64,000 nt of DNA from a virus (IMGVR_UViG_2784746744_000001:1-64000), one strand, 5' to 3'; positions 3,201 through 31,635 are shown, counted from the first letter of the stretch. Notes: a model not told the origin generated them from the sequence alone. Numbers and translations: made by a program.

Positions 3201-3375
3201 GCTGCGGTCCTCCAGTGGGTGGGCTCGTAGTAGACGTACGTCGAGCCGTCGGGGACGAACCACAAATTTCCATTGCGCTTGAGCTTCTGCTCGTTGCGAG
3301 CGCCAGCTGCGTCGTCGATTTTCGTGTCGACAACCAGCCCAACCGGCGGAAGTGCCTCGGTGAGTTTCTTCCACA
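3197..3375 (-). CDS. hypothetical small protein (about 59 aa, coordinates approximate)
   Basis: Minus-strand ORF MWKKLTEALPPVG... Translationally coupled (ATGA) to the flanking small genes and missed by the 60-aa ORF cut-off. Confidence 0.35.
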
Positions 3376-3564
3376 TCAGACGGAGTTCCGCTGGTTTGCG
3401 CGGGCCTTGTCACGGCGCTTGCCGGACGGGCGACCATGGCGCTTAGCCCTGTGGTCAGGCCGGGCCATAGGCTCGGCAGAAGATGCAGCATTGCGGGAAG
3501 GGTAGTAGTCACCTGCCTCGTCATACAGTTCGACGAGGCAAGGTCTTCTGCTTGAAAGTGGCAT
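3376..3564 (-). CDS. hypothetical basic small protein (62 aa)
   Basis: Start is preceded by the phage-typical CACCACCAGAGGAGA leader motif. Lys/Arg-rich C-terminus. Confidence 0.45.
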   Translation of the reverse strand: MPLSSRRPCLVELYDEAGDYYPSRNAASSAEPMARPDHRAKRHGRPSGKRRDKARANQRNSV

Positions 3565-3645
3565 GAGAGCCGTCTCCTCTGGTGGTGTACACCGCATTGG
3601 TGGTGCGGTGAGAGGAGAATGCTTTAATCCAAACGTGGAGTCAAT

Positions 3646-3658
3646 ATCCAAATTGGAT
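3646..3658. promoter_or_regulatory. operator-like palindrome ATCCAAATTGGAT (type A), downstream of repressor 1
   Basis: 11-bp odd palindrome TCCAA-A-TTGGA. Same element is repeated in the divergent promoter region at 4419-4475. Confidence 0.5.
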
Positions 3659-3662
3659 CAAT

Positions 3663-4388: not shown

Positions 4389-4418
4389 GTTTTTTTATCT
4401 CCGTTTTTCAACGTCTTA

Positions 4419-4475
4419 CCATTTTGGATATAAAAAAGCAAATCAAGCAATTGACTCCAAATCCAAATTGGATAT
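4419..4475. promoter_or_regulatory. divergent promoter/operator region with one full and two half copies of the TCCAAATTGGA palindrome
   Basis: Full site at 4462-4472. Half-sites TTGGATA at 4424-4430 and TCCAAAT at 4455-4461. Sits immediately upstream of the repressor 1 start. Confidence 0.5.
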
Positions 4476-4779
4476 TGATTGCGCTGTCACCAGATGGCGG
4501 GGGCCTGACGGAGACGAAACAACATGGCGGAAAACACACAATCCTGCACAAGAAGAAGAGCGAAGCTCCACGGTACTGACAGAAGTGGCTTAACGCGGGA
4601 GCGTGGGCCACCAAGAAGAAGCCAACCGGGCATCCCGACCCAAGCGGGATAAGACCCTAAGACGCGGCCAAACAAATTTAGGAGGTTCATTTGATACAGG
4701 AAAATAGCGGCAGAAGAATAGTTGAAAAACAGGGGGGTCGGAGAAGAGCCGACCCGCAGGCCAAGCCACCTTAAAAGCA

Positions 4780-5903: not shown

Positions 5904-6509
5904 TCACACGCGCTCGGCGAGCACGATGACATGCACCGCGGTAAGATCGCTGACAGTGACTGGATCGCCGGCATAGCGGCTAAGGCGCGCCGTTTCGCCA
6001 AGCTCTTCGAGGCGGCCAATCCATGCCAGTCCACCACGGCTGTGAGCAATCACGTCGTTGCCAGGCTTCGGCCAGACGGTAGGGTCAAGCCACACCTTGC
6101 AGCCGACCTTGAAGACCGGCTCCATCAGCTTAGTGTCAACGATCACTGCGTAGCGGCCATCGGGAACCGCCTTGCGCGTCGAATCAAATTTGAACTTGCC
6201 GTCCTTTCGGTCGGAAACACGACCGTAGGTGCTTGCTTTCGCAAAGGCGGTGAGGGGAGCGATCTTCCCGTCAACCGCGGCATGGCGTGCCTCCTCCACG
6301 AACTCGGCAAGTTTTTCCTCGGAGATGTTGAGGAAGGAAGCCAGCTTTGGGCGGGGAAGGCGAGGCAGGCTGTAGCGCTTCCACGTGCTGAAAGTCTGCT
6401 GCTGCTCGCCCAGTTCGCCGGCCGTTTCTCGGTCGGTCAGATTGCGCTCTCTTTGCTTATCGATAAGCATCTGCGCGAAGCGGGATTTCTTCTCAGGCAT
6501 TCGGTTCAC
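5904..6509 (-). CDS. second HTH_XRE/S24-like repressor (LexA-like C-terminal domain without an obvious catalytic Ser)
   Basis: 201 aa. N-terminal HTH. C-terminal beta-rich LexA/UmuD-like fold motifs (VIVDTKLMEP...GNDVIAH...WIGRL). Confidence 0.75.
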   Translation of the reverse strand: MNRMPEKKSRFAQMLIDKQRERNLTDRETAGELGEQQQTFSTWKRYSLPRLPRPKLASFLNISEEKLAEFVEEARHAAVDGKIAPLTAFAKASTYGRVSDRKDGKFKFDSTRKAVPDGRYAVIVDTKLMEPVFKVGCKVWLDPTVWPKPGNDVIAHSRGGLAWIGRLEELGETARLSRYAGDPVTVSDLTAVHVIVLAERV

Positions 6510-7199: not shown

Positions 7200-8399
7200 A
7201 TGGGGAAGTTTGAAAAAGGTCAGTACGTCCGCAGAACCAAGGGCAGTTCGCTGCACACTGCTGCTGGGATCCATGAGGCCGGTTTTGTCGGTCAGGTTTC
7301 TGCAGTCGAGATTTCGACCTGCGGCGCAGAGCTGCTCTTCACGAACGGCCAGCGCGGCATCGCCGACAAGTATGAGCCGTGGGTGCCAAAGGTCGGTGAT
7401 CGGGTGACCACCAATATGACCACACGCGTCAATATCGAGCGGCATTGGAACCATCATTTCCGACGTTCCGAAGGCGATATCATCAATGGTGCACTTGTTG
7501 TGACCAGTGTTTCGGAAAAAAACACCGGCAGCAATATCGGCCTTAGCAACAAGGAAGGCCGCAGCTTCTTCTTCATGCCCGAATCGACACTGCGACCTGC
7601 CGATCCGGCTCCCGCCGCCCTCACCATCGAAGCCGGCAAGTTCTACAAGACGCGCGATGGCCGGAAGGTCGGGCCGATTGTGAAGGCGCAATGGGGCTAC
7701 GGACCAGATTGGCTGTGGTCGGTTGAGCATCCGTTCGTCGCCTCCTGCGGCAAGGCGTGGCGCGCAGATGGCACCTTCTCGACAGTAGCTGGCCGCTCGG
7801 ATGAGGCTGACCTCGTTGCCGAATGGGTCGACGAGCCGGCCAGCAATGACAACGGCGGCATCGCCAGTCTGATTGGCAAGTCCGTCACGGTTCAGATCAC
7901 GAAGCCGAAGTTCGAAGTCGGCGATCGCGTGAATAAAACGGACTGGCAGAGTTACAGCCCGAAGGGATATCTCGTGACACAAATCACGTCGGACAGGCTT
8001 TGGCTGGATCCCGGCAATGGGATGGCGCCGGTCAGCTACAAACTGCCGGATGAGGAATTCTGGTTAGTTACAACGAAGCCTGCCACCACCCCCGCCATCG
8101 TCGCCCTCATCGAAAACGGCCAGCCTAAGCCGTCGTCCACCCCGCACGTCCATGCCGACGAAGCCAAGGCTGGCAAGGAAGCGGCCCGTCTTGCCGGTGT
8201 CTACAAGGGCAAGGAGTTCGGCGTCTTCGTCCTGACCTCGAGTGCCCAGCAGGCCGCGCCGGTCTACAAGCACGAATGGCAGCGCCTGGCTGCCAATGGC
8301 AACAAGATCGGCGCCATCAAGGAACTGCGGGCCGCCAACGACCTGACGCTCAAGGGCGCCAAGGATGCCGTCGAGCACTGGCTCGCAACGGCCGCCTAA
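7200..8399 (+). CDS. hypothetical protein with C-terminal ribosomal L7/L12-CTD-like segment. Contains ASNDN
   Basis: 400 aa. C-terminal KIGAIKELRAANDLTLKGAKDAVE resembles the L7/L12 C-terminal domain motif. Confidence 0.5.
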   Translation: MGKFEKGQYVRRTKGSSLHTAAGIHEAGFVGQVSAVEISTCGAELLFTNGQRGIADKYEPWVPKVGDRVTTNMTTRVNIERHWNHHFRRSEGDIINGALVVTSVSEKNTGSNIGLSNKEGRSFFFMPESTLRPADPAPAALTIEAGKFYKTRDGRKVGPIVKAQWGYGPDWLWSVEHPFVASCGKAWRADGTFSTVAGRSDEADLVAEWVDEPASNDNGGIASLIGKSVTVQITKPKFEVGDRVNKTDWQSYSPKGYLVTQITSDRLWLDPGNGMAPVSYKLPDEEFWLVTTKPATTPAIVALIENGQPKPSSTPHVHADEAKAGKEAARLAGVYKGKEFGVFVLTSSAQQAAPVYKHEWQRLAANGNKIGAIKELRAANDLTLKGAKDAVEHWLATAA

Positions 8400-8463: not shown

Positions 8464-8667
8464 ATGTCCAGACATCGCTCGACGACCAATCCCTACGCGA
8501 CCAGCCTGACCCGAACCGGCAAGCTGGATATGACCAACCGCAAGCCGTACCGTACGGCTGCCCAGCAGGCCGACGCCCGCTCGACGGCTGTGAAGGTGAA
8601 CGGCACTTTCGTGTCGAACGCACCGGTCAGCTACCACCGCTCGCCGAAAAAGCAGGTGGCCGCATGA
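8464..8667 (+). CDS. hypothetical small basic protein
   Basis: 67 aa. Strong leader GAGAGGAGACCT before the ATG. Confidence 0.5.
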   Translation: MSRHRSTTNPYATSLTRTGKLDMTNRKPYRTAAQQADARSTAVKVNGTFVSNAPVSYHRSPKKQVAA

Positions 8668-8906
8668 GCAACGTTTTCAGCAAGCTCGCCGCGCGCGAAT
8701 ACGTCAACGACACCAAGCTCGGTCTGCCATCGACCGACCGCGCGCACTTCGACCGCCGCAAGCACCTGATGTCCGTCCTTGCCGGTGGCAAAGGCTGGCG
8801 CGTCCCGTCCAAGGAACCGGCTCGTCGCGCTGATGGCACCACGCGAGGCGAACGCAAGCGCGCGCTGCGCGAGCGCACTTTCGCTCATCTCCGGGTGGCA
8901 GCATGA
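8664..8906 (+). CDS. hypothetical protein (80 aa)
   Basis: Internal Met of ORF 8430-8906. ATGA overlap with the preceding gene. Confidence 0.45.
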   Translation: MSNVFSKLAAREYVNDTKLGLPSTDRAHFDRRKHLMSVLAGGKGWRVPSKEPARRADGTTRGERKRALRERTFAHLRVAA

Positions 8907-9082
8907 CCAAGTCACCTTGGGGCGGTCCGCCCGTCACCGGCACGCCGCTCGATTACGTGCCGATCAGCGCGCCGCTCGGGGCCGGCATCGACATCCCTGA
9001 CCGACCTTCGCGTCTCGTAGGCTACTACCTCGTCTTCGGCGCCCTGATCATCGGCGTCCTGCTCGGTGCGGTGCTGGTCTGA
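8903..9082 (+). CDS. small membrane peptide (59 aa)
   Basis: ATGA-coupled. C-terminal TM helix YYLVFGALIIGVLLGAVLV. Followed by two more tiny hydrophobic ORFs (about 26 and 37 aa) up to 9276. Confidence 0.35.
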   Translation: MTKSPWGGPPVTGTPLDYVPISAPLGAGIDIPDRPSRLVGYYLVFGALIIGVLLGAVLV

Positions 9083-9276
9083 TGGGATCGCCGTTTAGCT
9101 GGATGCCCACCATCATGATTGTCGGCATCTTCGTGCTGTCGATCTGGCTTTTCGGAGGCTGAAATGGCGGCACTCGCAATCATCGGAGGAGGCGTCATCG
9201 CCTTCTTCCTGGCCTTGGGCGTGGCCACCTACTTCGCCCCGAAATCTACCACCACCACAAAGAGGAGACAGAAATA

Positions 9277-10128
9277 ATGGGTCGCATTTTTGCAGGCATC
9301 CTTGGCTTTTTCGTATTCATCGCCGCGTCGAGCGTTGTGTTCGGCAGCTGGTACACGATCGACGAGGGCGAACGCGGTGTCCTAACCCGCAACGGCGCAG
9401 TCGTAGGAACGGCCACACCTGGCCTCGGATTCAAGATGCCGATCATGGACGGTGTCGAGAAGATCACTGTGCGAACGGAGATCATCCAATTCGACAAGCT
9501 CGGCGCCTACAGCCGTGACCAGCAGTCGGCCGAGATGCGGGTGTCGGTGAACTACCGAATCCTGCCGGACGCCGTGAAGGACGTTTACTCGAACTACGGC
9601 TCTGCTGACGGTATCGCTGCCCGCCTTATCCAGCCGCGCATCTTCGAAACCCTGAAGACAGTATTTGGCCAATTCACCGCTGTGTCTGCCATTCAGGAGC
9701 GCGAGAAACTGAACACAATGGTGCGTGACGCCATCGCCAAGTCCGTCGGCGGCCCGATTGTCATCGAAGGTGTCCAGATCGAAAACATCGATTTCTCCGA
9801 TGCCTACGAGGCCAGCATCGAGCAGCGCATGCTTGCCGAGGTCGAGGTGCAGAAGCTCCGCCAGAACGCCGAGCGCGAGAAAGTGCAGGGCGAAATCACG
9901 GTGACGCAGGCCAACGCAAAGGCCGACGCTGTTCGAGCTGCTGCATCAGCTGAGGCTGAAGCCATCCGGATCCGAGGTGAAGCTGAAGCATCCGCCATCA
10001 AGTCTCGCGGCGCGGCCCTCCGTGACAATCCCGGCCTTGTCGACCTGACGGCAGTCGAAAAGTGGAAGGGCGACCTGCCATCCACGATGGTACCGGGCTC
10101 CGCTCTGCCGTTCGTCGGCATCAAGTAA
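9277..10128 (+). CDS. SPFH/band-7 (stomatin/prohibitin/HflK-C-like) membrane protein
   Basis: 283 aa. N-terminal TM helix, SPFH core, C-terminal coiled coil rich in A/E/R. Confidence 0.8.
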   Translation: MGRIFAGILGFFVFIAASSVVFGSWYTIDEGERGVLTRNGAVVGTATPGLGFKMPIMDGVEKITVRTEIIQFDKLGAYSRDQQSAEMRVSVNYRILPDAVKDVYSNYGSADGIAARLIQPRIFETLKTVFGQFTAVSAIQEREKLNTMVRDAIAKSVGGPIVIEGVQIENIDFSDAYEASIEQRMLAEVEVQKLRQNAEREKVQGEITVTQANAKADAVRAAASAEAEAIRIRGEAEASAIKSRGAALRDNPGLVDLTAVEKWKGDLPSTMVPGSALPFVGIK

Positions 10129-10185: not shown

Positions 10186-10959
10186 ATGGCTATTTCCCTT
10201 GGTAGCTTGAACAGCACCAGAAACAATAAGCCTCCGATCGGCGTCATCTATGGCGTCCACGGCGTCGGCAAGACCGCATTGGCGGCCGAGTTTCCCGATC
10301 CGTACTACCTCCCCACCATGGGCGAGGAGCCGCCGGACGACATCGATATGCCGTCGCCGGGCACCGCTGAGAGCCTTGAAGACATCCTCGATGTCATTGG
10401 CTGGCTTCTCACCGAGGAGCACGACCGAAAGACCTTCATCCTCGACAGCGTTGATGGCGCCGAGAGCCTGGTCTGGAAAGCGACTTGCGCGCGCCTTGGC
10501 CTCAACAGCATCGAGGATGCGGGTTTCGGTAAGGGTTATGTCGAGGCGGACACCGAGTGGCGCGAGCTTCTCGCCGGTCTGCAGGCGCTGCGAGACGCAG
10601 GCATCGCCGTCGTGCTCATTGCTCACACTGAGATCACGCGGTTCGACAGCCCGACCAGCGATCCGTTCTCGCGCTACGGCATCAAACTCCACAAGCGCGC
10701 TTCGGCGCTCGTGCAGGAATGCGCCCAGTTCGTCGGCTTCATCAACTACCGCCATACGCTGAAAGAGAAGGAGGTCGGCTTCAACAAGAAGGTCTCGCAC
10801 GCCGAAGGCAGTGGCGAGCGTCAGATCCACCTCGAGGAGCGTCCCGGCTTTCTCGCCAAGTCGCGGTACGGCACGCCGGCAGCCATCACTTTCAAGAAGG
10901 GCAAGGGCTGGGAGGAGCTGGCCAAATACATGCCTGAGCCGCTCGGGAAGGCCGCCTGA
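10186..10959 (+). CDS. Sak4-like AAA_24 RecA-fold ATPase (phage ssDNA annealing/recombination)
   Basis: Walker A GVHGVGKT. Typical Sak4 length of 257 aa. Followed by DUF669. Confidence 0.75.
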   Translation: MAISLGSLNSTRNNKPPIGVIYGVHGVGKTALAAEFPDPYYLPTMGEEPPDDIDMPSPGTAESLEDILDVIGWLLTEEHDRKTFILDSVDGAESLVWKATCARLGLNSIEDAGFGKGYVEADTEWRELLAGLQALRDAGIAVVLIAHTEITRFDSPTSDPFSRYGIKLHKRASALVQECAQFVGFINYRHTLKEKEVGFNKKVSHAEGSGERQIHLEERPGFLAKSRYGTPAAITFKKGKGWEELAKYMPEPLGKAA

Positions 10960-11123
10960 TGTTCAGCGGTGGCAACTGGTTCGCCTGGTTCCCGGTACTT
11001 GTCCGCACATCTCGCGGCAAGCGTTGGGCCTGGCTTGAGAACGTCTGGCGCGAACGCGTCGTCAGCCAACACGGCAGCGGTCCATACCGCTACTACGCCT
11101 AACCACACAGAGGAGATATTGCG

Positions 11124-11339
11124 ATGGCAATTTTCAAGTCGGATTCGCTCGACGGCATCCTGAACACCTTCAACAAAACGATCACGCGCCTCGATGCCTT
11201 CTCGGCTAAGCGCCAGCAGGATGCCGACGCAGCGGCCACCCTCATCAAGCAGAAGCAGGACGAACAGAAGGCAGCTCTCGACGACGTCACCAAGTCGGCC
11301 GCCGTTCGCTCGAAGATCAGTGACCTGATCGCCGCCTAA
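11124..11339 (+). CDS. hypothetical protein
   Basis: 71 aa. Leader ACACAGAGGAGA. Confidence 0.45.
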   Translation: MAIFKSDSLDGILNTFNKTITRLDAFSAKRQQDADAAATLIKQKQDEQKAALDDVTKSAAVRSKISDLIAA

Positions 11340-11375
11340 CCACCGCCTACCAGACACCACACAAGGAGACCACGC

Positions 11376-11963
11376 ATGGCCAAGATTGGCGTAAGAGTTG
11401 AAGCCACCGAAGAGAACACGCAGCAGCGCGATTTCTCGAACCTTCCAAACGGCGACTATCAGCTGGAAATCAGCGCCTCCGAGATCAAGGAGAAGAACGA
11501 GAACACCCGCGACCACAGCATCAACCTCAGCGTGACGATTGACGTCCTCGCGCCGGAGGAGCTCAAAGGCCGCAAGATTTTCTCGAACTACAACCTGCAG
11601 CATCCGAATTCGCAGGTGCAGGAAATCGGACAGCGTCAGTTTGCCTGCCTCCTTCGCTCGCTCGGCATGCAGGACGCGCCGGAGGATTCCGACGAGTTGC
11701 ACTTCATCTCGTTCTTCGCCCGTATCGGCATGGGTAAGGACAGCAAGGAAAAGAACGCCGACGGCTCGCCGAAGTACGCCGCGCGCAACGAGTTGAAGAA
11801 ATACTTCTATCCGGATGAAGGCAACTTGCCGGAGCCGAAGGTGGACGCCGGTCCCGTCGCGGCAAACGACAATCGTCGCGCGCCTGCCGCATCCAACGAC
11901 AATCGTCAGCCGCCGCAGGCCGACGCCAAGCCGGCCGCCCGTCGTCCTTGGGGCAACAAGTAA
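11376..11963 (+). CDS. DUF669-family phage protein (SSB-like partner of Sak4). C-terminal tail has two ANDN motifs
   Basis: N-terminal MAKIGVRVEATEENTQ...NGDYQLEI is typical of DUF669. Confidence 0.6.
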   Translation: MAKIGVRVEATEENTQQRDFSNLPNGDYQLEISASEIKEKNENTRDHSINLSVTIDVLAPEELKGRKIFSNYNLQHPNSQVQEIGQRQFACLLRSLGMQDAPEDSDELHFISFFARIGMGKDSKEKNADGSPKYAARNELKKYFYPDEGNLPEPKVDAGPVAANDNRRAPAASNDNRQPPQADAKPAARRPWGNK

Positions 11964-12065
11964 CCACCGAATAGCGGGTCGCGACCAACGGCCCGCTACC
12001 GACACAGATGACCCGCCGCGCGGCTCACCACCGTGCGGCAATCACCACATCCAGAGGAGACCACC

Positions 12066-13124
12066 ATGCAGCTGAAAACCAGCCGCACCGAGCTCGCGCG
12101 CGTCGTTGGCGCCGTTGGCAAGGTCATCGAATCCAGAACAACCATCCCAATCTTGTCCAATATCCTGCTAGAAGCCGAGGGCGACCGCCTTCGCCTTACC
12201 GGCACGGATCTCGACATCCAAGCGACGGCCAGCGCTGAGGCTACCATCGCCGAACCTGGCCGTGTCACGGTCAGCGCCAAGTTGCTCGGCGATATCGTCC
12301 GTAAGGCCGGCGCTGATGACATTTCGCTCGATCTGAAGGATGGTCGTCTGACCGTCAAGTCGGGACGATCGCGCTTTACGCTCGAAACTTTGCCGGCATC
12401 GGACTATCCGGATCTCGCGGTCGGCACGTACTCTGCCGAATTCGAGATCGACCTCGCTGCGCTGTTCGCACCTGTGTCGTTCGCGATCTCGACAGAGGAG
12501 ACCCGCTATTACCTGAACGGTGCGTTCTTCCACAGTGAGGAGGGCGCGCGCTCAGTAGCCGTGGCAACTGACGGGCATCGCCTCGCGCGCAACCGCGGCC
12601 CCGAACTGCCCGCTTTCGCCGGGATCATTGTTCCTCGAAAAACAGTCGGCTTGCTGCCGAAGGGTTCGGCTAAGGTATCGGTCTCAGACACGAAGATCCG
12701 CATCGAATCGGCAGGATTCTTGATGGTCTCGAAACTGATCGACGGCACGTTCCCCGACTATCGCCGCGTCATCCCTCAGAACAACGACAAGACCATCGTG
12801 GTGGATCGTGATGAAATGATGCGGGCATCTGACCGCGTCGTCACTGTCAGCAGCGAGCGTGGCCGAGCTGTAAAGCTTAGCGTTGCGCCAGGTTCGATCG
12901 CTCTTGCCGCACGCTCTGACGCAGGCGCCGCAGAGGACGAGGTAGCAGCTGAATATAGCGGCGAGCCTTTCGTCATCGGCTTCAACAGCCAGTACGTTCG
13001 TGACCTGTTCAATGTGCTGCCCGCCGGACCAGTCACAATCAACGCTGCCGACGGCGGCTCACCTGCGATCATCACCGGTGGGCTTGATGGCTGGGACGGC
13101 GTCTTGATGCCCATGCGCGTCTGA
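12066..13124 (+). CDS. dnaN: DNA polymerase III beta sliding clamp (DnaN-like), phage-encoded
   Basis: 352 aa. Three-domain clamp signature (MQLKTSRTEL...ILSNILLEAEG...LRLTGTDLD). Leader CAGAGGAGACCACC. Confidence 0.85.
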   Translation: MQLKTSRTELARVVGAVGKVIESRTTIPILSNILLEAEGDRLRLTGTDLDIQATASAEATIAEPGRVTVSAKLLGDIVRKAGADDISLDLKDGRLTVKSGRSRFTLETLPASDYPDLAVGTYSAEFEIDLAALFAPVSFAISTEETRYYLNGAFFHSEEGARSVAVATDGHRLARNRGPELPAFAGIIVPRKTVGLLPKGSAKVSVSDTKIRIESAGFLMVSKLIDGTFPDYRRVIPQNNDKTIVVDRDEMMRASDRVVTVSSERGRAVKLSVAPGSIALAARSDAGAAEDEVAAEYSGEPFVIGFNSQYVRDLFNVLPAGPVTINAADGGSPAIITGGLDGWDGVLMPMRV

Positions 13125-13438
13125 TGGCAACCATCGAGCAGGAAGGCGGGCTGTGGCGGCCCGCCAACGCAACTGAAGGCCATAATTTCGAGAATAACTG
13201 GTGTCGTCACTGCGCGAATCGCGATGGCGCTGGGGATTGGGAAGATGAGTTTGGCAGTCACGTCGATGGCTCATGTCCGATCGCCGAAGCGATGTTCTGG
13301 TCGCCCCAGTTTCAGCCGGACGAACTCGTGATTCGACATGGCCAGCCTTGGTGCTTGGCATTTCGGCAGGATCCGAAGGTGCCAGCGCGGTGCCTTTTCA
13401 CGGAGGAGATGCCGTTTGGCCCCACTACCCAAATCTGA
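13124..13438 (+). CDS. hypothetical Cys/His-rich protein
   Basis: 104 aa. ATGA-coupled to dnaN. Confidence 0.45.
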   Translation: MATIEQEGGLWRPANATEGHNFENNWCRHCANRDGAGDWEDEFGSHVDGSCPIAEAMFWSPQFQPDELVIRHGQPWCLAFRQDPKVPARCLFTEEMPFGPTTQI

Positions 13439-14351
13439 ATCCAGCACAGTTCGCGCCATATACGCCGCCTATGAGGCTGCCGCGAGCTCGTGGGACAGCC
13501 TCGGCATTTCGGTTGGCGAGGCAAACGCACCTTGCGATCGACAGCTTTGGTATGCGTTTCGCTGGGCATCGCCGCTGGAAAAGCACCACGGCCGCCAGCT
13601 GCGCCTTTTCGCCACTGGTAACATCGAGGAAGACAGGCTCGTGGCCGACCTCGAAGCGATCGGCGTGGACGTCTATGGCCAGCAGGATCGGATTCGTCTG
13701 GTTGGAAGCCATGTCCGTGGCAAGTGCGACGGCAAGGCCATGGGGATAGTCGAAGCGCCGAAGACCGAGCACTTGCTGGAGTTCAAGTCGAGCAACACGA
13801 AGGGCATGAAGCTAATCGTAAAGGAAGGCTGCGAGAAAGCGAAACCGCTCCACTACGGCCAGTGTCAGCTGGGTATGCACGCTTTCGGCCTGTCACGATG
13901 CCTGTATCTCGTCAGCTGCAAGGATGACGATACGCTCTATGCCGAGCGCCTAGTCTACGATCCAGAGTTTTGCATGCGGCTGCTGGCACGCCTTGAGCGG
14001 ATCATCAACGCGCCTGAGCCGCCGTCACGCATCAGCGAAGACCCAGAGTGGTTCGAATGCTTGTTTTGCAAGCACAAGCCAGTCTGCAAGCAGTCGGCGT
14101 GGCCACGCGTGACCTGCCGATCATGTATCCACTCGACGCCTGAGATGGGCGGCGATGGCCACTGGTCATGCGCTCGGTGGGCAAAGCCGATCTCGTTCGA
14201 TGAACAAAAAGAGGGATGCCCTACGCACCTCACCATTCCAGCCTTAGTGCCGGGAGAGCAGATCGACGTCGACGAAGAGGCCGAGACCATCACCTATCGC
14301 CTTACCAACGGCGATCTTTGGACTGACGGCGCCACCAACGCCGCAGCCTGA
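13416..14351 (+). CDS. PD-(D/E)xK nuclease, Cas4/RecB-like with C-terminal Cys cluster (TTG start inferred)
   Basis: D...EFK motif (GIVEAPKTEHLLEFKSS). C-terminal CKHKPVC...C...C cluster. GGAGGAGA 5 nt before the TTG. Confidence 0.6.
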   Translation: MAPLPKSESSTVRAIYAAYEAAASSWDSLGISVGEANAPCDRQLWYAFRWASPLEKHHGRQLRLFATGNIEEDRLVADLEAIGVDVYGQQDRIRLVGSHVRGKCDGKAMGIVEAPKTEHLLEFKSSNTKGMKLIVKEGCEKAKPLHYGQCQLGMHAFGLSRCLYLVSCKDDDTLYAERLVYDPEFCMRLLARLERIINAPEPPSRISEDPEWFECLFCKHKPVCKQSAWPRVTCRSCIHSTPEMGGDGHWSCARWAKPISFDEQKEGCPTHLTIPALVPGEQIDVDEEAETITYRLTNGDLWTDGATNAAA

Positions 14352-14373
14352 CACCACCACAGAGGAGACCACC

Positions 14374-14931
14374 ATGACCCCGGCGAACGATAACCGCCCT
14401 ACACCAAAAAGGCCGGCCGGCTTCGACGCCGCGCTCGAATCCTACCTGCCTTCGCTCCGGAAGCAGGCAAACTATATGGCCGGCACACGTGAGGACGGCG
14501 AAGTCCTCCTGCATGAGACCGTCCTGCGGATGCTCCGCTGCGCCGATAACTGCCGCGTGGAGACGTTCAAAACCTGGGCGCAGTACAAGCTGCTCAACAC
14601 CCACAGTGGCATGAGGGCGGCAGCCCGCAGCCAGTGCCGGTTCGCGCCGACGACGTCACTTACTCCTGCCAACGATAACGACCCGGACGAATTCGCTCGC
14701 ACGATCTCCCAGATGCGGACGGCTGCGACGCAGGAAGCGGATGCTGACTTTGCGGATGCGCTCCGGGTTCTCGGCACCATCAAGGACGGTGACTTGCTTC
14801 TCCGTCGCGCGATGGGTTTTGAGCTCAAGGTCATCGGCGACGAGCTCGGCGTGAGCAAGGAGCGCGTCCGCCAGCGTGAAGAGGCCGCAAGAACGGCGTT
14901 CTGCGCAGCGATGCAGCGGAGTGTCGCCTGA
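14374..14931 (+). CDS. ECF-type sigma-70 family sigma factor (regions 2 and 4). Two ANDN motifs
   Basis: Region 2-like LLHETVLRMLR. Region 4 HTH LKVIGDELGVSKERVRQ. Confidence 0.65.
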   Translation: MTPANDNRPTPKRPAGFDAALESYLPSLRKQANYMAGTREDGEVLLHETVLRMLRCADNCRVETFKTWAQYKLLNTHSGMRAAARSQCRFAPTTSLTPANDNDPDEFARTISQMRTAATQEADADFADALRVLGTIKDGDLLLRRAMGFELKVIGDELGVSKERVRQREEAARTAFCAAMQRSVA

Positions 14932-16721
14932 TGGGTCTTCGATACTATCAGGAAGATGCTGTTGCAGCACTGTTCGATTATTGGGGCGAGGAGGCGGGCA
15001 ATCCGTTGATCGATCTCGCGACCGGCACCGGCAAATCCATGGTCATGGCCACGGTTATCCGCCAGCTTGTCGAAGGCTGGCCGGACATGCGCATCATGGT
15101 CGTGACGCACGTAGCGGAATTGATCGAACAGAACTTCCTCGAACTGCTCAGCGTCTGGAATCAGGCGCCGGCAGGTATCTTCTCGGCCGGCCTCAATCGC
15201 CGTGATGCTCGCAGCCAGATCATCTTCGCCGGCATTCAGACCGTCTGGAACAAGGCCGACCTGATCTGTGGCGCGCGCGTCGTCAATGGTGAGAAGGTTT
15301 ATGACCGACCTATCGACGTCGTTCTTGTCGATGAGTGCCATCTGATTCCGAAAAACAGCGACACTCAATACGGCCAATTCTTCCGCGTCGTGCGCGAGGT
15401 GAATCCGGATCTCAAGATAGTCGGGCTTACCGCGACGCCGTTTCGCCTAGATAGCGGTCGCCTCGATGAGGGCGAGGACCGGATGTTCGACCGCGTGGTC
15501 TACACCTATGGTATCGCCGACGGGGTACGCGACGGCTATCTCGCCCCGCTGTCGTCGAAGCACACCGCCACGGAACTGAGCATGAAGGGCGTGGGCCGTC
15601 TGGGCGCGGACTATAAGCAGTCGGCCATGCAGGCGGCCGTGGATAAGCCGGACGTCACGCAGGCGGCCGTTGACGAGATCGTAGCGAAGGGCGCGGACAA
15701 ACGTTCCTGGCTTTGCTTCTGCTCTGGCGTCGAGCATGCTGAGCACGTTCGCGACGAGATCCGGTCACGCGGAATCAGTTGCGAAATGATCACCGGCGAC
15801 ACGCCCAAGGAAGAGCGCCGGCGCATCATCGAAGACTTCAAGGCCTTCCGGATCCGCGCGTTGACGAACAATTCGGTTTTGACGACCGGCTTCAATCACA
15901 AGGGCGTCGATCTCATCGCGGCTTTGCGGCCGACGCTGTCCGCATCCCTTTACCTGCAGATGATGGGGCGAGGGACGCGCGTGCTCTATGCGCCGGGTAT
16001 GTCGCTGGAAACGCCGGACGAGCGCCGCGCTGCAATTGCCGCTGGTCCGAAGCCATCCTGCTTGGTGCTCGACTTCGCCGGTCTCGTAGACAAGCACGGA
16101 CCAGTGGACATGGTGCAGCCGAAGGAGCCGGGCAGCGGTGATGGCGAAGCGCCGATGAAGATTTGCCCGGTCGATCGTCAGGACAAGAACGACAACTATG
16201 GGTGCGGTGAGAAGCTGCATGCATCGGCGCGGGTCTGCTCATGCTGCGATTATGAGTTCGACATCGACGATAGCCCAAAGATCGCCGGCACAGCTGCCGA
16301 CGTTCCGATCATGACGATGGCTGAGCCGGAATCGCGCAACGTCACCAGTCGCACGTTCCGATTCCATGAAGGGAAGGGCGATAAGCCACCGTCAGTGAAG
16401 GTTACCTTCATGTCTGGCATGACGGCCATCAATGAGTGGCTATGCCCCCAGCATTCCGGTTTTGCAAAGACGAAGGCGGATCGTTTCTGGCTGGCGCACG
16501 GTGGCAACCGGCCTTTCCCACGCGAAGTGATGGAGTGGCTAGAAAGGCAGAGCGAGCTGAAGGAAACAGTGGAGATCACCGTCCAGCCGCGCGGAAAATA
16601 CTGGGATGTGGTCGGGCATGTCGTCGGAGATTATGCAGCGGCAAACGACAACGATGAGCCGCCGGCTAACGATAATCGGCCGGCTTGGACGGACGAATTG
16701 GAGGACGGGATTCCGTTTTGA
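14931..16721 (+). CDS. SF2 DEAD/DEAH-box DNA helicase (res-subunit-like) with C-terminal zinc ribbon. C-terminal ANDN x2
   Basis: Motif I TGTGKS. Motif II VLVDECH. Motif III LTATP. Cys cluster near the C-terminus. Confidence 0.8.
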   Translation: MGLRYYQEDAVAALFDYWGEEAGNPLIDLATGTGKSMVMATVIRQLVEGWPDMRIMVVTHVAELIEQNFLELLSVWNQAPAGIFSAGLNRRDARSQIIFAGIQTVWNKADLICGARVVNGEKVYDRPIDVVLVDECHLIPKNSDTQYGQFFRVVREVNPDLKIVGLTATPFRLDSGRLDEGEDRMFDRVVYTYGIADGVRDGYLAPLSSKHTATELSMKGVGRLGADYKQSAMQAAVDKPDVTQAAVDEIVAKGADKRSWLCFCSGVEHAEHVRDEIRSRGISCEMITGDTPKEERRRIIEDFKAFRIRALTNNSVLTTGFNHKGVDLIAALRPTLSASLYLQMMGRGTRVLYAPGMSLETPDERRAAIAAGPKPSCLVLDFAGLVDKHGPVDMVQPKEPGSGDGEAPMKICPVDRQDKNDNYGCGEKLHASARVCSCCDYEFDIDDSPKIAGTAADVPIMTMAEPESRNVTSRTFRFHEGKGDKPPSVKVTFMSGMTAINEWLCPQHSGFAKTKADRFWLAHGGNRPFPREVMEWLERQSELKETVEITVQPRGKYWDVVGHVVGDYAAANDNDEPPANDNRPAWTDELEDGIPF

Positions 16722-16735: not shown

Positions 16736-17401
16736 CTAACTCTTCGTTTTTATCCCTTTCTCAAGCTTGTGCTCCAGGCCTCGCATGATCGATGTGCTCA
16801 TGGCTGAAAAAGCTCCCACGGGAGAAAGCTCACGCTTTTTCAGATTCCGGTAAATCGCTTTGCGCGTAGCCATGGGTATCGTCTTGTCGGCTAGTTGTTG
16901 GAAAATGAGTAGTATTTTTTCAGCGTGCTCTGTCCTCATCTCTATTAAATCCGGTCTGTTAAGACCGATAATTTCGATCGTGGACAAGCCTGGAATGGAG
17001 CCGCAATGCCCCGCGACAGGCCCAGCAAAGACAATGTGGTCATCGGGGTCGGTGATGTAGGGATCAATTATTTGGGCGGCGGTAGGATCATCGTTCGATT
17101 TGTTTTGATTACATAATTCGCACGCCAGCGTCAGGTTGTCCCATTTGAAAGTCTTCTTAGGATCTAGTGACTTCGGATAGATATGCTCGACATCACCATG
17201 ATGCACATGTTTGAGTTTAGCTTCGCAATAGGCGCACTTGCCATTTGTCTCAAGGGTTAGGACGCGCTTTATGTCGACGTGTCGATATTTGCTCTTGAGA
17301 CCATCGTTTGCGTTCTTACCTGCAGCAAGGAGATCTGCCAGCCAGGCAGCGCCATTCGTTACAAGCACAGTTGGCTCGGTTAACTTAGAGAGCTTTATCA
17401 T
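16736..17401 (-). CDS. HNH endonuclease, PtuB-like (Septu-like defence partner)
   Basis: CAYCE...HHGDVEHIYP...N...CELCN HNH motif. 4-nt overlap with the upstream ATPase. AT-richer than the surrounding genes. Confidence 0.7.
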   Translation of the reverse strand: MIKLSKLTEPTVLVTNGAAWLADLLAAGKNANDGLKSKYRHVDIKRVLTLETNGKCAYCEAKLKHVHHGDVEHIYPKSLDPKKTFKWDNLTLACELCNQNKSNDDPTAAQIIDPYITDPDDHIVFAGPVAGHCGSIPGLSTIEIIGLNRPDLIEMRTEHAEKILLIFQQLADKTIPMATRKAIYRNLKKRELSPVGAFSAMSTSIMRGLEHKLEKGIKTKS

Positions 17402-18648
17402 CTGTTTGCAGCCATTCTCGCGAGCGTTTCTGCGAAGTAATCATCCAGCCCAAGCTGTGTCAGTTGCGAGCGCATTTGCTCAATATTGCCCTCAGTCAAG
17501 TTGTTGATATCGAACGCCTTTGATACCTTATAGAGCTCCTCTTCTGCCCAGATCGGCATCGTTACCGGCACTCCAAGTACCTCGCGCAAGACGTCGCCTG
17601 CAGAACCAGACTTCGAATCTTTGGTCAACGCTACGGAATAAACCGATCCGCCTGAGGGTAAAATGTTGTTCGCGCTCTTATATCTCAAGGCGTATATCGA
17701 CGAATCGCGAACAGACGAAACGACAAAAGGACTGTGGGTGGCGACGATGAATTGCCCACTTGGAAACGCTTGCAGCAGATTTCCCATAAGTGTGCGTTGC
17801 ATAGAAGGGTGTAGGTGATTTTCTGGCTCGTCGATTAAGCAAACAAAATTCGTTCTTTTCCGTGAATATAAGAAAACCTGCCAGGCCAAGTCCAATATGG
17901 AGTGAAGTCCGCCCGATGCACCGTCTATAGGGAAGTCACCTGTGTCAGTAACAATGACTACATCAGGAACTCTAATGCTAAGTGTCCTGAAACCTAGGCT
18001 CTGAGGAAGAAGCTTGCCCAGAACATCCTTGAACGCTTCGTAGTCGGCCTCGATCTGAACGTTACGAGGAATGTTGGGGTTTCCTACCCCAAATGTCGCC
18101 ATTGATATCAGCGCCTCTTTCATCCGAAAGGCCGGCGAGGAGGCCGTGTAACTATTCGCGATCTTGTGCTTTATCTCCTCATCGTAGAGCGTGTACGCCT
18201 GCTCTGCAGACATAGGATTGCTCCTTATGACATCCACGGCTTGGTATGTTGGGATAAACCTGTGAGACGCGATGTACAGGCCGTCCAGAACTTGCGACCC
18301 TCGAGTATGATGCAAGTTATATGCCCCAGAGTCAGTGCCCAGAGCGTGTAATCCTGATTTTGTGCCGTCTGAGAACGTCACCATCCCAATGCGGTTTTGC
18401 TCGTCCATAGCGCGCTGGCCTTGCCTTTTGTCGCGATCGTTCGCGACGTATCGCACGGTACCATCGTCGTCGATGTGCGGCGTCGCCACCAGCAATTGAT
18501 TGAAGCCAAACATCATGCCCAAGGTCTTCAGGATGGTGCTTTTACCCGAACCATTTGCGCCGGCGATTACGGTGAGGCGAGGATGGAAATCAATGTTGAT
18601 GGAGGCGTATTGCCGCCAATTCTCAATCTCAAGGTTATTAAAAATCAC
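17398..18648 (-). CDS. ABC/OLD-type AAA_15/21 ATPase, PtuA-like (Septu-like defence)
   Basis: N-terminal Walker A GANGSGKST. Walker B FVCLIDEPENHLHP. 416 aa. Operon with the HNH gene. Confidence 0.7.
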   Translation of the reverse strand: MIFNNLEIENWRQYASINIDFHPRLTVIAGANGSGKSTILKTLGMMFGFNQLLVATPHIDDDGTVRYVANDRDKRQGQRAMDEQNRIGMVTFSDGTKSGLHALGTDSGAYNLHHTRGSQVLDGLYIASHRFIPTYQAVDVIRSNPMSAEQAYTLYDEEIKHKIANSYTASSPAFRMKEALISMATFGVGNPNIPRNVQIEADYEAFKDVLGKLLPQSLGFRTLSIRVPDVVIVTDTGDFPIDGASGGLHSILDLAWQVFLYSRKRTNFVCLIDEPENHLHPSMQRTLMGNLLQAFPSGQFIVATHSPFVVSSVRDSSIYALRYKSANNILPSGGSVYSVALTKDSKSGSAGDVLREVLGVPVTMPIWAEEELYKVSKAFDINNLTEGNIEQMRSQLTQLGLDDYFAETLARMAANR

Positions 18649-18859: not shown

Positions 18860-19411
18860 ATGATGAAGGATGCCCATAGCCTTCAGTACCTGAAAGAATG
18901 CTTGAGATACAATCCAGAGACAGGCGCGCTCCACTGGCGAGAAGATCGTCCCAAACATCACTTCGACTTATCAAGAACACGCAATCGGTGGATTGGGCGT
19001 TTTGGTGGAAAGCAGATCACCTGCGTCGCGGAAAGCGGCTACATCGTGTTCAACTTGCGTGGCGTTGTCTACCTCGCTCATCGCGTAATCTTTGCGATGG
19101 AGAACAACATCGAGATGGCAGAACTGCCTGAGCAGATCGACCACAAAGACACGGTTCGCACCAACAACCGCCGAAGCAATTTGCGAGCGGCAGACGTTGT
19201 TAAAAACGCGCATAACATGTCCGTTCGTCGTGATAGCGCCTCCGGATACAAGGGCGTCACATGGGGCAAGCAGCGTCAAAAATGGCGAGCCACGATCCAG
19301 ATCGATGGAAAACAGAAGCATCTCGGATTCTATGAGGATCCGGCAGAAGCTCATGCCGCCTACATCAAGGCAGCAAATGAGAATTTCGGTCAGTTCGCGA
19401 GGGCAGCATGA
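18860..19411 (+). CDS. HNH homing endonuclease with AP2 DNA-binding domain
   Basis: HNH_3 motif YLAHRV...IDHKD...N. AP2 domain SGYKGVTWGKQRQKWRATIQ...FYEDPAEAHAAY. Confidence 0.7.
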   Translation: MMKDAHSLQYLKECLRYNPETGALHWREDRPKHHFDLSRTRNRWIGRFGGKQITCVAESGYIVFNLRGVVYLAHRVIFAMENNIEMAELPEQIDHKDTVRTNNRRSNLRAADVVKNAHNMSVRRDSASGYKGVTWGKQRQKWRATIQIDGKQKHLGFYEDPAEAHAAYIKAANENFGQFARAA

Positions 19412-20139
19412 TTAGTGAGTTCAATCCCGCTGAAATCGCTGGTGCCGGCCACAACCAAGATCCATTCGAGGCCCTCAAGCGGGAACTCGACGATCTCTAC
19501 GATGAGGCGAAAAACTTTTGTGACGGCGAGCCGATCGGATCGGAAGATATGGCGGAGGCCATTACCGAGTTGCACGACCGCATCCACGAATGCGGCACGC
19601 GTGCTGAGGCTCTCCGCGTTGCAGAGAAGAAGCCTCTGGACGAAAAGGTAGCGGCGATCCAGGCGAAATTCCATCCGCTGATCGGCAACACCAAGACAGG
19701 TAAGGGCAAGGTCGTGCTCGGCAAGGATGCTTGCCAATCCCTCCTCACGCCGTGGCGCAAGAGGGTTGCCGACGACAAGGCGGCAGAGGCTGCTGCGAAG
19801 GCCGCCGAGGCGGCCGCTGCCACAAAGGCCGCTGAAGAGGCGATACGATCTTCGTCCGGCAATCTCGGCGCCCGTGAATATGCCGAAGAACTGTTGGCCG
19901 ACGCGAAAAAGATGGAGCGCGGCGCCAAGCGTGCGGACAAGGCGGCAACCACTGGGACCGGCCTTCGTACTGTGTGGAACGTGAACATCTCAGACGAGAC
20001 GAAGGCGCTCGACTGGGCGTTTGAACACGCGCCGGGCGAGTTCATGGCGATGGCGCTTTCGCTGGCCGAGGAACAGGTTCGCAAGGGTGTGCGCTCGATC
20101 GAGGGGTTCTCGATCGTCGAAGACAAGGTAGCTCGTTAG
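19408..20139 (+). CDS. hypothetical protein with Ala/Glu/Lys-rich coiled-coil centre
   Basis: 243 aa, ATGA-coupled. Confidence 0.5.
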   Translation: MISEFNPAEIAGAGHNQDPFEALKRELDDLYDEAKNFCDGEPIGSEDMAEAITELHDRIHECGTRAEALRVAEKKPLDEKVAAIQAKFHPLIGNTKTGKGKVVLGKDACQSLLTPWRKRVADDKAAEAAAKAAEAAAATKAAEEAIRSSSGNLGAREYAEELLADAKKMERGAKRADKAATTGTGLRTVWNVNISDETKALDWAFEHAPGEFMAMALSLAEEQVRKGVRSIEGFSIVEDKVAR

Positions 20140-20436: not shown

Positions 20437-21762
20437 ATGACGAGCACGACGATGCACGACGGAAGAGTCGTGCTGCATCAGGCCGACTGCCGCGACGCCT
20501 TGCGCAGTTTGGGCGACAACTCGATCGACAGTGTGGTCACAGACCCGCCGTATGCGTTGGTGTCGATCCAGAAACGCTTCGGAAAACCGGGCGCGGCGCC
20601 GGCCAAGGACGTTTATGGTCGCGGCGCGGCTGGGTTCATGGGCAAGCAGTGGGACACAGGTGAAGTCGCGTTTAGCGATGAGTTCTGGGTGGAAGTGTTG
20701 CGCGTTCTTAAACCGGGCGGCCATGTGGCAGCCTTTGGGGGCACACGTACCTATCATCGGATGGCCGTAGCAATCGAAGATGCGGGCTTCGAGATACGTG
20801 ACCAGCTTGGCTGGGTTTATGGATCGGGTTTCCCAAAATCACATAATCAGACCGGTGATTGGGAGGGTTGGGGCACTGCGCTCAAGCCAGCATGGGAACC
20901 AATCTGCCTCGCGCGAAAGCCTCTGGCCGGTACCGTGGCGGCAAACCTTGAGGAGTGGGGCGTCGGTGCGATCAATGTTGATAAGTGCCGCGTTGCGACG
21001 GAAGAAGCGTTGAGCGCCGGTGCCGGAAAGTTGTGGTCGTACTACCGTGAAGGCGAGGCAAGTGCAGACCGCAGATACAATGACGTGGGTGGCACTAGCT
21101 TCTCATTGAAGCCTGGTACTAGAGGCGGTGATCCTGCCGGCCGATGGCCAGCAAACATCCTGCACGACGGCAGCGACGAGGTACGCTCTGCTTTCCCAGA
21201 TGCGAAGGGTCAGCAGGGAGACCTGAACGGTCAGTCGAAAGACCGCAAGAGCAAAGGTATCTTTGGCGATATGCCTGCCGCTCGGCAGGCGTTGGCTCGC
21301 GTGGAGGCCGACACCTCAGCCGCGCGGTTCTTCTACTGCGCAAAGGCAAGTCGGGCCGATCGGGACGCCGGCCTTGAGCACCTGCCGAAGAAAACAGGCG
21401 GCATGGTTTCAAACACCTCGGGCCAACACATCACCCGACGTGATGCCGAATATAAGCCGGAGCCTCGAGCAAATACACATCCGACCGTCAAACCGATCAC
21501 CCTTATGCAGTGGCTCTGCCGCCTCATCACGCCGCCCAATGGTGTAGTTCTCGACCCTTTCATGGGCTCCGGATCGACGGGTAAAGCGGCTGTCCTTGAA
21601 GGTTTTCGGTTCGTGGGATGCGAGCGCGAGGAAGAATACATGCCGATTGCGTCATCTCGTATCGCGTGGGCAATCGGCGCAGCGGACAAATCGGAGCAAG
21701 CCCCAGTGATACGCGTCGCCAATGACAATCGGGAAGGTGATCTGTTCGGGGTGGCAGCATGA
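20437..21762 (+). CDS. DNA N6-adenine/N4-cytosine methyltransferase (beta-class, DPPY motif first). C-terminal ANDN-x-EGDLF tail
   Basis: DPPY at the N-terminus. AdoMet motif FMGSGSTG near the C-terminus. CcrM-like architecture. Confidence 0.85.
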   Translation: MTSTTMHDGRVVLHQADCRDALRSLGDNSIDSVVTDPPYALVSIQKRFGKPGAAPAKDVYGRGAAGFMGKQWDTGEVAFSDEFWVEVLRVLKPGGHVAAFGGTRTYHRMAVAIEDAGFEIRDQLGWVYGSGFPKSHNQTGDWEGWGTALKPAWEPICLARKPLAGTVAANLEEWGVGAINVDKCRVATEEALSAGAGKLWSYYREGEASADRRYNDVGGTSFSLKPGTRGGDPAGRWPANILHDGSDEVRSAFPDAKGQQGDLNGQSKDRKSKGIFGDMPAARQALARVEADTSAARFFYCAKASRADRDAGLEHLPKKTGGMVSNTSGQHITRRDAEYKPEPRANTHPTVKPITLMQWLCRLITPPNGVVLDPFMGSGSTGKAAVLEGFRFVGCEREEEYMPIASSRIAWAIGAADKSEQAPVIRVANDNREGDLFGVAA

Positions 21763-21989
21763 GCCCGGCCGAGATGGAGGCCGCTTGCAAAGACAGCCTT
21801 GCGGGTGCTGTTGAGTTTGGCCTGCCTGAGAACAGGGCTTGCGTGAACCTCGTCACGCCGCCAGGTTTCAAGCCGCCGCAGGGTTTCCCACGTGGGTACC
21901 TGCTGCAGGTGAAGGAAGACGGCCGGCGCATCAAGAGTTACCCGGCGCTGCGTGTGCTGGCATGGATCAGGAAGGCGGCGGCAGCATGA
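21759..21989 (+). CDS. hypothetical protein
   Basis: 76 aa, ATGA-coupled on both sides. Confidence 0.4.
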   Translation: MSPAEMEAACKDSLAGAVEFGLPENRACVNLVTPPGFKPPQGFPRGYLLQVKEDGRRIKSYPALRVLAWIRKAAAA

Positions 21990-22327
21990 CCTTTCATCCC
22001 ACCATGGTCGGCGGCGCGCCTGCTGTCTGCAACTGCTGCGGCCGCGCTGCCACGGGCGTCGGCATCGGCGATGCGAAGGAGCCACGATTCCTTTGTCAGG
22101 AGTGCGTGCTTATCCTCGAACAGATCAAGCGTGTTCGCAGGTTCGATCCTTACGAGCTTGAGGCACGCCTTGGCGGCATGGAAGCCGCTGGGCCGCTGGT
22201 CGATGAGTTCGGCAGTGACCTTGCTGAATGGAGCGAGGAGCAGGTGCTCATTTTCTGCGGCGCGATCTGGAAGGGCTGCGCTGACAAGTTGAGGGAAGTT
22301 ATCCGCGCCGGCCAACCACCATTCTAA
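21986..22327 (+). CDS. hypothetical zinc-ribbon protein (CxxC...CxxC)
   Basis: 113 aa. CNCCGRA...CQEC motifs. Confidence 0.4.
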   Translation: MTFHPTMVGGAPAVCNCCGRAATGVGIGDAKEPRFLCQECVLILEQIKRVRRFDPYELEARLGGMEAAGPLVDEFGSDLAEWSEEQVLIFCGAIWKGCADKLREVIRAGQPPF

Positions 22328-31627: not shown

Positions 31628-31635
31628 ACTCCCAT

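Follow-up and report, generated by a model that had tools for sequence, protein, structure and literature searches.

A phage-borne beta sliding clamp and ssrA-like protein tails in the probable early replication operon of a 16-3-like Neorhizobium prophage

Positions 10186-16721 of the viral sequence IMGVR_UViG_2784746744_000001:1-64000, whose full 64,000 nucleotides are referred to here as the window, encode a Sak4-like ATPase, a DUF669 protein, a DnaN-like beta sliding clamp, a Cas4-like nuclease, an ECF-type sigma factor and an SF2 helicase. Taken as a whole, the block probably serves a temperate, phage 16-3-like prophage in Neorhizobium as its early operon for replication and recombination, in which a dedicated phage clamp would work with the host DNA polymerase III (Pol III) and short tail motifs would connect early proteins to their partners; this is the explanation that best accommodates the genes, the use of the clamp and the tails together. 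A preliminary description of the window had proposed a phage replication and recombination module with an intact phage-borne beta clamp, which is borne out here: its six gene calls are right, all of them lie on the plus strand at the coordinates listed below, and Pfam, PHROGs and NCBIfam concur.

A 1.35-Mb contig of Neorhizobium sp. JUb45 encodes a protein with 100% identity to the window clamp, and the window is therefore a prophage of this strain. It starts with an integrase, followed by a repressor (5904-6509, minus strand) and a long rightward early operon; a terminase occupies 32.6-35.2 kb, and genes for head and tail are also present. Synteny of the block extends to the annotated temperate phages 16-3, RHph_TM3_3_14B and RHph_X2_25, at a DNA identity of about 67-73%, and also to 80 IMG/VR contigs or loci. 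As in the window, the genes of these three phages (p077-p101 in 16-3) run in the order Sak4, DUF669, DnaN, a small open reading frame (ORF), Cas4 exonuclease, sigma factor and SF2 helicase, then methyltransferases and primase; their clamps are 57-63% identical to that of the window, and the tail motifs are alike. The window lacks the HNH and second-sigma insertions found in the three phages and, unlike them, has a Septu defence pair, an SPFH gene and a fused, longer methyltransferase. The gene arrangement itself is a known one, to which the window adds one further 16-3-like prophage. The block comprises:

10186-10959, plus strand: Sak4-like RecA-fold ATPase annealing single-stranded DNA (AAA_24, E=6e-36; phrog_124, 'Sak4-like ssDNA annealing protein', 2e-38; Walker A GVHGVGKT; end GKAA)
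11124-11339, plus strand: small ORF
11376-11963, plus strand: DUF669 protein, phage analogue of single-stranded DNA-binding protein (SSB) (Pfam E=3e-10, and PHROG SSB families)
12066-13124, plus strand: beta sliding clamp DnaN, 352 amino acids, ending MPMRV (Pfam, TIGR00663, alignment with 5wce)
13124-13438, plus strand: Cys-rich protein of 104 amino acids (phrog_6074, 2e-7)
about 13416-14351, start codon uncertain, plus strand: Cas4-domain PD-(D/E)xK exonuclease (phrog_1990, E=1e-99; end NAAA)
14374-14931, plus strand: ECF-type sigma factor (TIGR02937, 44.8 against a cut-off of 42.9; Sigma70_r4, 27 against 24.1; phrog_1740)
14931-16721, plus strand: RadD-like SF2 helicase (ResIII and Helicase_C; RadD core, 4e-71; motifs GTGKS and DECH)

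The clamp is full length, with all three Pol III beta domains (PF00712, PF02767 and PF02768) over threshold, a TIGR00663 score of 258 bits against a cut-off of 138, and residues 1-352 aligned end to end with the Caulobacter clamp 5wce (E=1e-79). Its true start is the ATG at 12066, with GAGGAGA ahead of it; an ORF start at 12033 was rejected as a GTG extension, an artefact of ORF listing. For comparison with the host, 79 cellular Rhizobiales DnaN proteins (372 amino acids) were taken from species-representative genomes, two Neorhizobium chromosomes included; one cellular Neorhizobium dnaN was found in housekeeping-gene surroundings. Identity of the window clamp to this set is 46-51% (49% to Neorhizobium), and to 83 phage-type clamps of 345-360 amino acids it is 51-87%. 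In a neighbour-joining tree, cellular DnaN and the phage-type clamps fall entirely apart in 200 of 200 bootstraps, and the latter have 19 deleted alignment columns in common.

The possibility that the dnaN-like gene is a recent host capture, possibly decaying and without a dedicated phage function, can be weighed on these data. The gene is a bona fide DnaN equivalog and its pocket residues, described below, are common with the host, as would be found after a capture. However, only 49% identity to Neorhizobium DnaN, the position of the clade of about 350 residues apart from all cellular DnaN, with its 19 deleted columns, and a clamp that is intact in all 84 phage-type sequences aligned, at an unchanged operon position and with its own strong ribosome-binding site, leave such an origin with hardly any probability. 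The recently captured, disrupted host copy that the preliminary description had allowed for is not what the phylogeny against host dnaN reveals.

The peptide-binding pocket was compared at 23 positions in E. coli numbering, which line the pocket of E. coli beta (domains II/III). The window clamp is identical to E. coli at 20 of 23 of them and matches the Rhizobiales host consensus at 23 of 23; at none of the 23 does the predominant residue differ between the phage and host clades, and 14 are invariant across the 84 phage-type clamps. The C-terminal MPMR[LV] feature is present, and the dimer-interface positions, mostly common with host clamps, would be compatible with a homodimer or a heterodimer. 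The clamp is thus old in the phage lineage, with its pocket kept as in the host, and the clade of about 350 amino acids appears, as sampled, to be restricted to 16-3-like Rhizobiaceae phages.

Concerning the role of the clamp, neither a DNA polymerase nor a clamp-loader subunit is found among the window ORFs searched. Given this, and a pocket unchanged with respect to the host, the phage likely relies on the host Pol III, and re-targeting of Pol III or of the phage's own proteins to DNA, as had been proposed, would be the natural reading. In the resulting model, the phage clamp would be loaded by the host clamp loader and used by the host Pol III on phage templates that the phage primase has primed; recombination-dependent replication would draw on Sak4, the DUF669 SSB and the exonucleases. 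The clamp would also tether the phage methyltransferases through a C-terminal motif (QADLF, QLSLF or xxDLF), so that new phage DNA would be methylated during synthesis, and the SSB-type acidic tip of the helicase would recruit Sak4 and/or host SSB partners. As a more speculative step, early phage proteins would be fed to SspB/ClpXP through [AP]ANDN and a C-terminal Ala-Ala for rapid turnover. The peptides that contact partners would then sit between or beside the tag elements, as with QADLF in the methyltransferases and the SSB tip of the helicase. The methyltransferases and the primase lie in the continuation of the early operon, where the primase-helicase had been placed correctly:

18860-19411, plus strand: HNH endonuclease (phrog_99, 4e-57; end ARAA)
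19408-20139, plus strand: second, downstream exonuclease (phrog_10477, 1e-54)
20437-21762, plus strand: N6/N4 DNA methyltransferase, CcrM-like (phrog_67, 3e-74)
21986-22327, plus strand: small conserved protein between the methyltransferases (phrog_19707; end GQPPF)
22385-24433, plus strand: C5 cytosine methyltransferase (phrog_116, 2e-88; 14-residue ssrA-like tail AANDNVSDVSLRAA at 24389-24430)
24615-26852, plus strand: primase-polymerase/helicase (phrog_906, E=1e-108; linker SNDN at 25680-25691; end VRAA)

The tail of the N6/N4 methyltransferase (21718-21759) reads ANDN-REG-DLF-GVAA, with DLF at 21739-21747 and the end sequence ANDNREGDLFGVAA. Endings of the form ANDN-x2-4-(QADLF/QLSLF/PADLF/QLDIF)-G-x-AA are shared by its orthologues and by another methyltransferase family (about 275 amino acids) of related phages, the other parts of the tail being variable. 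The consensus for clamp binding is QL[SD]LF, and QPDLF (in MuC) and DLF (in Mor) are functional in Mu (PMC12867686). The suggestion that the methyltransferase DLF is a clamp-binding peptide gains support as a candidate, since the orthologue tails QADLF, QLSLF and PADLF fit this consensus, and the tails point to clamp-tethered methylation of newly made phage DNA. No other protein family of these loci has a clamp-binding-like motif at a terminus, and in the literature found there is no report of clamp-binding motifs on phage DNA methyltransferases.

The clamp could instead be chiefly transcriptional, the DNA-loaded clamp activating the phage sigma factor and linking late transcription to replication, as do T4 gp45 and the MuC-clamp pair of Mu. 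The clamp and ECF sigma genes are conserved neighbours in the operon, and the T4 and Mu cases are real precedents (PMC12867686). Still, neither end of the sigma factor or of its 43 orthologues has a QL[SD]LF-like motif, the methyltransferases being the only clear carriers, which makes this role unlikely as the principal one; it would in any case be compatible with a function in replication rather than exclusive of it.

The helicase tail belongs to another category. It spans 16635-16718, with ANDN at 16641-16652 and 16665-16676 and the final ELEDGIPF at 16695-16718, and its orthologues show the pattern [AP]ANDN-x3-4-[AP]ANDN, an acidic stretch and D-D-D-[IV]-P-F: 60 of 69 end in PF, mostly as DDD[IV]PF, and 56 of 69 have ANDN within the last 30 residues. 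The IPF end had been read as a clamp-binding peptide, but the acidic D-D-D-[IV]-P-F tip is like the bacterial SSB C-terminus, and the SSB of phage RR1-A ends in DMDDDIPF. The helicase tail thus appears to be a mimic of the SSB C-terminal tip, not a clamp-binding peptide. The DUF669 protein of HK620 is a proven SSB whose tip, NDYPPF, recruits Sak4 (PMC5928155). The window DUF669 has no acidic PF tip and ends in the basic AARRPWGNK; it is a tail variant, its family being assigned by Pfam (E=3e-10), and a PF end is present in 6 of 75 orthologues. Within the lineage DUF669 ends in RRPWGxK, and one subclade only keeps DDDIPF after RPWG. Because this subclade keeps the tip that the helicase bears in other 16-3-like phages, the alignments suggest that the SSB tip was relocated from DUF669 to the helicase. 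The Sak4 protein is a RecA-core-only ATPase (AAA_24) with a Walker A motif, its gene adjoins that of DUF669, and its annealing role is predicted.

Two observations concern the same tip. The DUF669 subclade (L146, L148-L150, L152 and L153; e.g. L149 at 8611-9207) ends in SRPWGQRSNTVDDDIPF, with the acidic SSB tip kept. The small phrog_19707 protein (21986-22327) has about 45 orthologues that all end in [ED]-[AV]-P-F, and is a third PF-tipped protein of the module.

The ANDN tetrapeptide, noticed in the preliminary description on several proteins of the block, is indeed present there in six ANDN/SNDN copies, two each in DUF669 (ANDN 11862-11873 and SNDN 11892-11903, in a disordered tail with the basic end RRPWGNK), the sigma factor (N-terminal ANDN 14383-14394, internal 14668-14679) and the helicase. 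ANDN recurs in 73 of 75 DUF669 orthologues and at the N-terminus of 26 of 43 sigma orthologues. Over the 80 related loci there are 446 copies, against 2.7 +/- 1.7 in residue shuffles, and Rhizobiales chromosomal genes called alike yield a single one in 418,798 residues; the window has 17 [AS]NDN, with 0.2 expected. The consensus is [AP]-A-N-D-N-(R)-P, and about half of the copies lie no more than 25 residues from the C-terminus, the others being N-terminal or in linkers. A second feature is the terminal Ala-Ala, present in 516 of 1972 genes of the related loci (26%) and in 75 of 1560 host genes (4.8%; p=1e-71). In the window it ends 12 of 27 early genes and 1 of 27 late genes (p=9e-4), and among Sak4 orthologues 54 of 76 have it.

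Both motifs cluster at gene ends, and Ala-Ala is enriched at GCA-GCA-TGA/ATGA junctions, where it reaches 43% in ATGA overlaps (host 7%) as against 18% elsewhere (host 3.9%), so it could be asked whether ANDN and Ala-Ala are by-products of DNA or RNA signals, such as recombination boundaries or translational-coupling junctions, rather than protein motifs. The coding of the motifs makes this highly improbable: of the 32 codon quartets possible for ANDN, 31 are in use, the sense frame has 597 copies of AAYGAYAAY and the other frames or strand 3-47, and at the terminal Ala-Ala each of the four Ala codons and each of the three stop codons is found, with an enrichment of about 5-fold off the overlap junctions and only 7% at host ATGA junctions. 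Because its codon quartets are diverse and confined to the sense frame, ANDN is selected at the protein level. The tail motifs appear statistically unambiguous and apparently undescribed; nothing relevant on ANDN in phages was found in the literature, where thin coverage of subscription journals makes this weak evidence of absence.

Together the two motifs have the layout of an ssrA tag, whose N-terminal AAND(N) part is said, from the work of Flynn in 2001 and Chien in 2007, to be read by SspB. For Agrobacterium the tag sequence is ANDNNAKEYALAA (PMC12493166), for Caulobacter AANDNFAEEFAVAA (PMC1233412), and the window tails ANDNREGDLFGVAA of the N6/N4 methyltransferase and AANDNVSDVSLRAA of the C5 methyltransferase match these in start, length and end. 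Tails with (A)ANDN, 6-11 residues and Ala-Ala number 78 in the related loci, and 25 of 25 in the portal set described below. In an unbiased E. coli screen the terminal Ala-Ala was by far the strongest ClpXP C-degron (PMC10862746), and SspB speeds the ClpXP degradation of ssrA-tagged proteins in Caulobacter (PMC9393093). Neither ARAGORN nor Rfam detects a tmRNA in the window, where tRNA-Met and tRNA-Trp are the only hits, hence the tails are not tmRNA-derived sequence; no tmRNA lies near dnaN in 60 host loci.

More speculatively, then, [AP]ANDN with a terminal Ala-Ala may mimic the alpha-proteobacterial ssrA tag, and SspB/ClpXP is tentatively put forward as the likeliest host partner of the ANDN tails. 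It is conceivable, with similar reserve, that temperate phages of Rhizobiales copy the host tmRNA tag over much of their early proteome and some structural proteins: ANDN would dock SspB and Ala-Ala would engage ClpX, a protein bound to its partner being shielded and a free one destroyed.

The distribution of ANDN outside the module bears on what it binds. A scan of viral contigs for AANDNRP-coding DNA gave 98 stretches, about half of them perhaps due to chance, and only loci with several motifs were used. Among these, loci in which no window protein has a detectable homologue (L195, L206 and L263) hold 3-10 ANDN each, on portal, major head/capsid, terminase, excisionase and primase proteins. 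A protein search with one ANDN portal retrieved homologues from Sinorhizobium, Mesorhizobium, Brucella, Phyllobacterium, Xanthobacter and other alpha-proteobacteria, and in 120 of them (P0271-P0390) a C-terminal ANDN goes with an Ala-Ala end in 25 of 25 cases, against 19 of 95 where it is lacking (p=3e-14), with 6-11 residues in between in the 25 tails. The HK97-type portals of unrelated Rhizobiales prophages (L195 at 3486-4748, L206 at 2958-4226) have ssrA-like tails such as AAANDNKPKPKPKEAAA and KPANDNQPQRAAA.

In the opposite direction, the clamp-bearing phages AmM-1 and RR1-A, of other lineages, have no ANDN and Ala-Ala ends at background only; the clamp-less RHph_X2_26 also has no ANDN and background Ala-Ala, but differs in lineage and lifestyle and is not a clean control. 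A link of ANDN to the clamp is not sustained by these clamp-bearing phages or by the ANDN-rich, module-free prophages. By its distribution the composite ANDN-AA tail seems to be a portable unit that tracks Rhizobiales mobile elements, not the clamp module.

A related idea is that ANDN docks on a phage-encoded hub, either the clamp or another protein of the 16-3 lineage, and not on a host factor. Nearly all of the 83 clamp-bearing 16-3-like loci have ANDN, two short fragments being without it, the clamp itself is nearly free of the motif (1 of 82 in the loci, 1 of 120 among database homologues), and most carriers act on DNA. A hub of this kind is nevertheless doubtful in view of the absence of ANDN from AmM-1 and RR1-A, of its 3-10 copies, portal, capsid and terminase included, in the three loci without window homologues, of the 25 HK97-type portals of diverse Rhizobiales prophages with ANDN-x6-11-AA, and of the identity of ANDN with the invariant start of alpha-proteobacterial ssrA tags. 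The composite tail in unrelated Rhizobiales prophages favours a host partner.

Several points weigh against the overall explanation of a host-served clamp and tag-like tails. We infer from pocket conservation alone that the host loader and Pol III would accept the phage clamp. The methyltransferase motif of the window is degenerate, EGDLF without the Gln, which meets 3 of the 5 positions of QL[SD]LF. Termini scanned in the related loci show no clamp-binding motif on sigma factor, helicase, nucleases or primase, for which reason the set of phage clients of the clamp may be small. About half of the ANDN copies are internal, N-terminal or on proteins with other ends than Ala-Ala (helicase and DUF669 among them), and with so many copies lacking Ala-Ala, degradation cannot be the sole role of ANDN. 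The residue before Ala-Ala is in many cases E, G or D, all of them weak in E. coli screens, and the higher frequency of Ala-Ala at ATGA overlaps (43% against 18%) makes some RNA-level contribution possible.

The remaining genes of the block add detail. The start of the Cys-rich ORF overlaps the clamp stop (TGATG), and the two are hence predicted to be translationally coupled. The Cas4-domain exonuclease, which gave no Pfam match in the profile search, carries the Cas4 cluster C66 and C241-x2-C244-x5-C250; of 65 orthologues, at least 95% keep D131, E148, K150, C66, C244 and C250. It has beside this a second conserved four-Cys set, C260, C263, C278 and C294 (numbering from 13338), which suggests an extra metal-binding domain. 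The r2 profile of the sigma factor is under cut-off (19.1 against 24).

Other observations concern the neighbourhood. Directly after the helicase, on the minus strand, lies a complete Septu anti-phage defence pair that the preliminary description does not mention, PtuB (HNH, 16736-17401) and PtuA (ATPase, 17398-18648), assigned by PADLOC at E=1e-68 and E=2.6e-151, respectively. GC content drops to 0.52 in the pair, the flanks being at about 0.61, and none of the 82 related loci has it; it looks like a moron that the prophage carries within its replication operon. Just 5' of Sak4 in the early operon is an SPFH/Band-7 membrane-scaffold gene (9277-10128), present in only 2 of 83 related loci. An early protein at 7200-8399 (phrog_4317) has a C-terminal stretch like the C-terminal domain of ribosomal L7/L12, as which its RHph_X2_25 counterpart is annotated, and ends in Ala-Ala in 49 of 49 orthologues. 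A long, near-identical ribosome-binding region, CACCAC(..)AGAGGAGA, far longer than the Shine-Dalgarno requirement, precedes eight early genes on the plus strand (9250, 10168, 11355, 12043, 14352, 18838, 20419 and 22362), and the opposite strand has two copies. Between the early and packaging regions, tRNA-Met (CAT) and tRNA-Trp (CCA) stand in tandem at 31551-31707.

In comparison with known systems, the clamp joins a recognised group. Phage homologues of Pol III beta are well known (PMC4889955, Kazlauskas et al. 2016), 160 phage records match the window clamp, and the corresponding PHROG family is phrog_947; the module itself is ordinary in this sense. Like phage Pol III beta homologues in general, the window clamp is a three-domain, bacterial-type clamp of a tailed phage, but it comes without a phage polymerase or clamp loader and belongs to a distinct short clade. 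The module confirms that an old clamp lineage is dedicated to such phages, which would borrow the polymerase of their host.

T4 gp45 with gp33, gp55 and gp43, and MuC and Mor of Mu with the host clamp (PMC12867686), share with the present case short terminal motifs of the type (QL[SD]LF, QPDLF or DLF) that in those phages ties proteins to a clamp. The putative carriers here are DNA methyltransferases, and not transcription factors or polymerases, and the clamp is phage-encoded but of bacterial type. The nearest functional analogue of a tether between clamp and methyltransferase is the eukaryotic DNMT1-PCNA pair, of which a bacterial-type clamp recruiting DNA methyltransferases would, if true, be the prokaryotic counterpart. 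As regards the SSB tip, HK620 (PMC5928155) also has adjacent sak4 and DUF669 genes and a C-terminal PF tip as recruiting element, whereas in the present lineage DUF669 ends in the basic RRPWGxK and the acidic D-D-D-[IV]-P-F is on the RadD-like helicase; if this is correct, an SSB interaction tip can move onto a helicase.

Concerning the tags, the window-type tails share the (A)ANDN-x6-11-AA-COOH format of the Agrobacterium and Caulobacter ssrA tags read by SspB/ClpXP. That phages can write ssrA-like degrons into their own genes is already known from Int and Rep of cluster G/P mycobacteriophages, whose tags are genome-encoded (PMC9635641). Those tags involve two proteins, in contrast to a quarter of the early genes here, where the putative adaptor-binding half is included and also occurs by itself at N-termini and in linkers. 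Such plugging of a phage early proteome into host SspB/ClpXP has very strong statistics behind the motifs and was not met in the literature searched; if true, the phages would be using the ribosome-rescue degradation pathway proteome-wide, through tags encoded in their own genomes, for the timing and clearance of phage proteins. The ideas on the tails are testable in phage 16-3 and Sinorhizobium meliloti, a tractable system that carries the same gene order and similar tail motifs.

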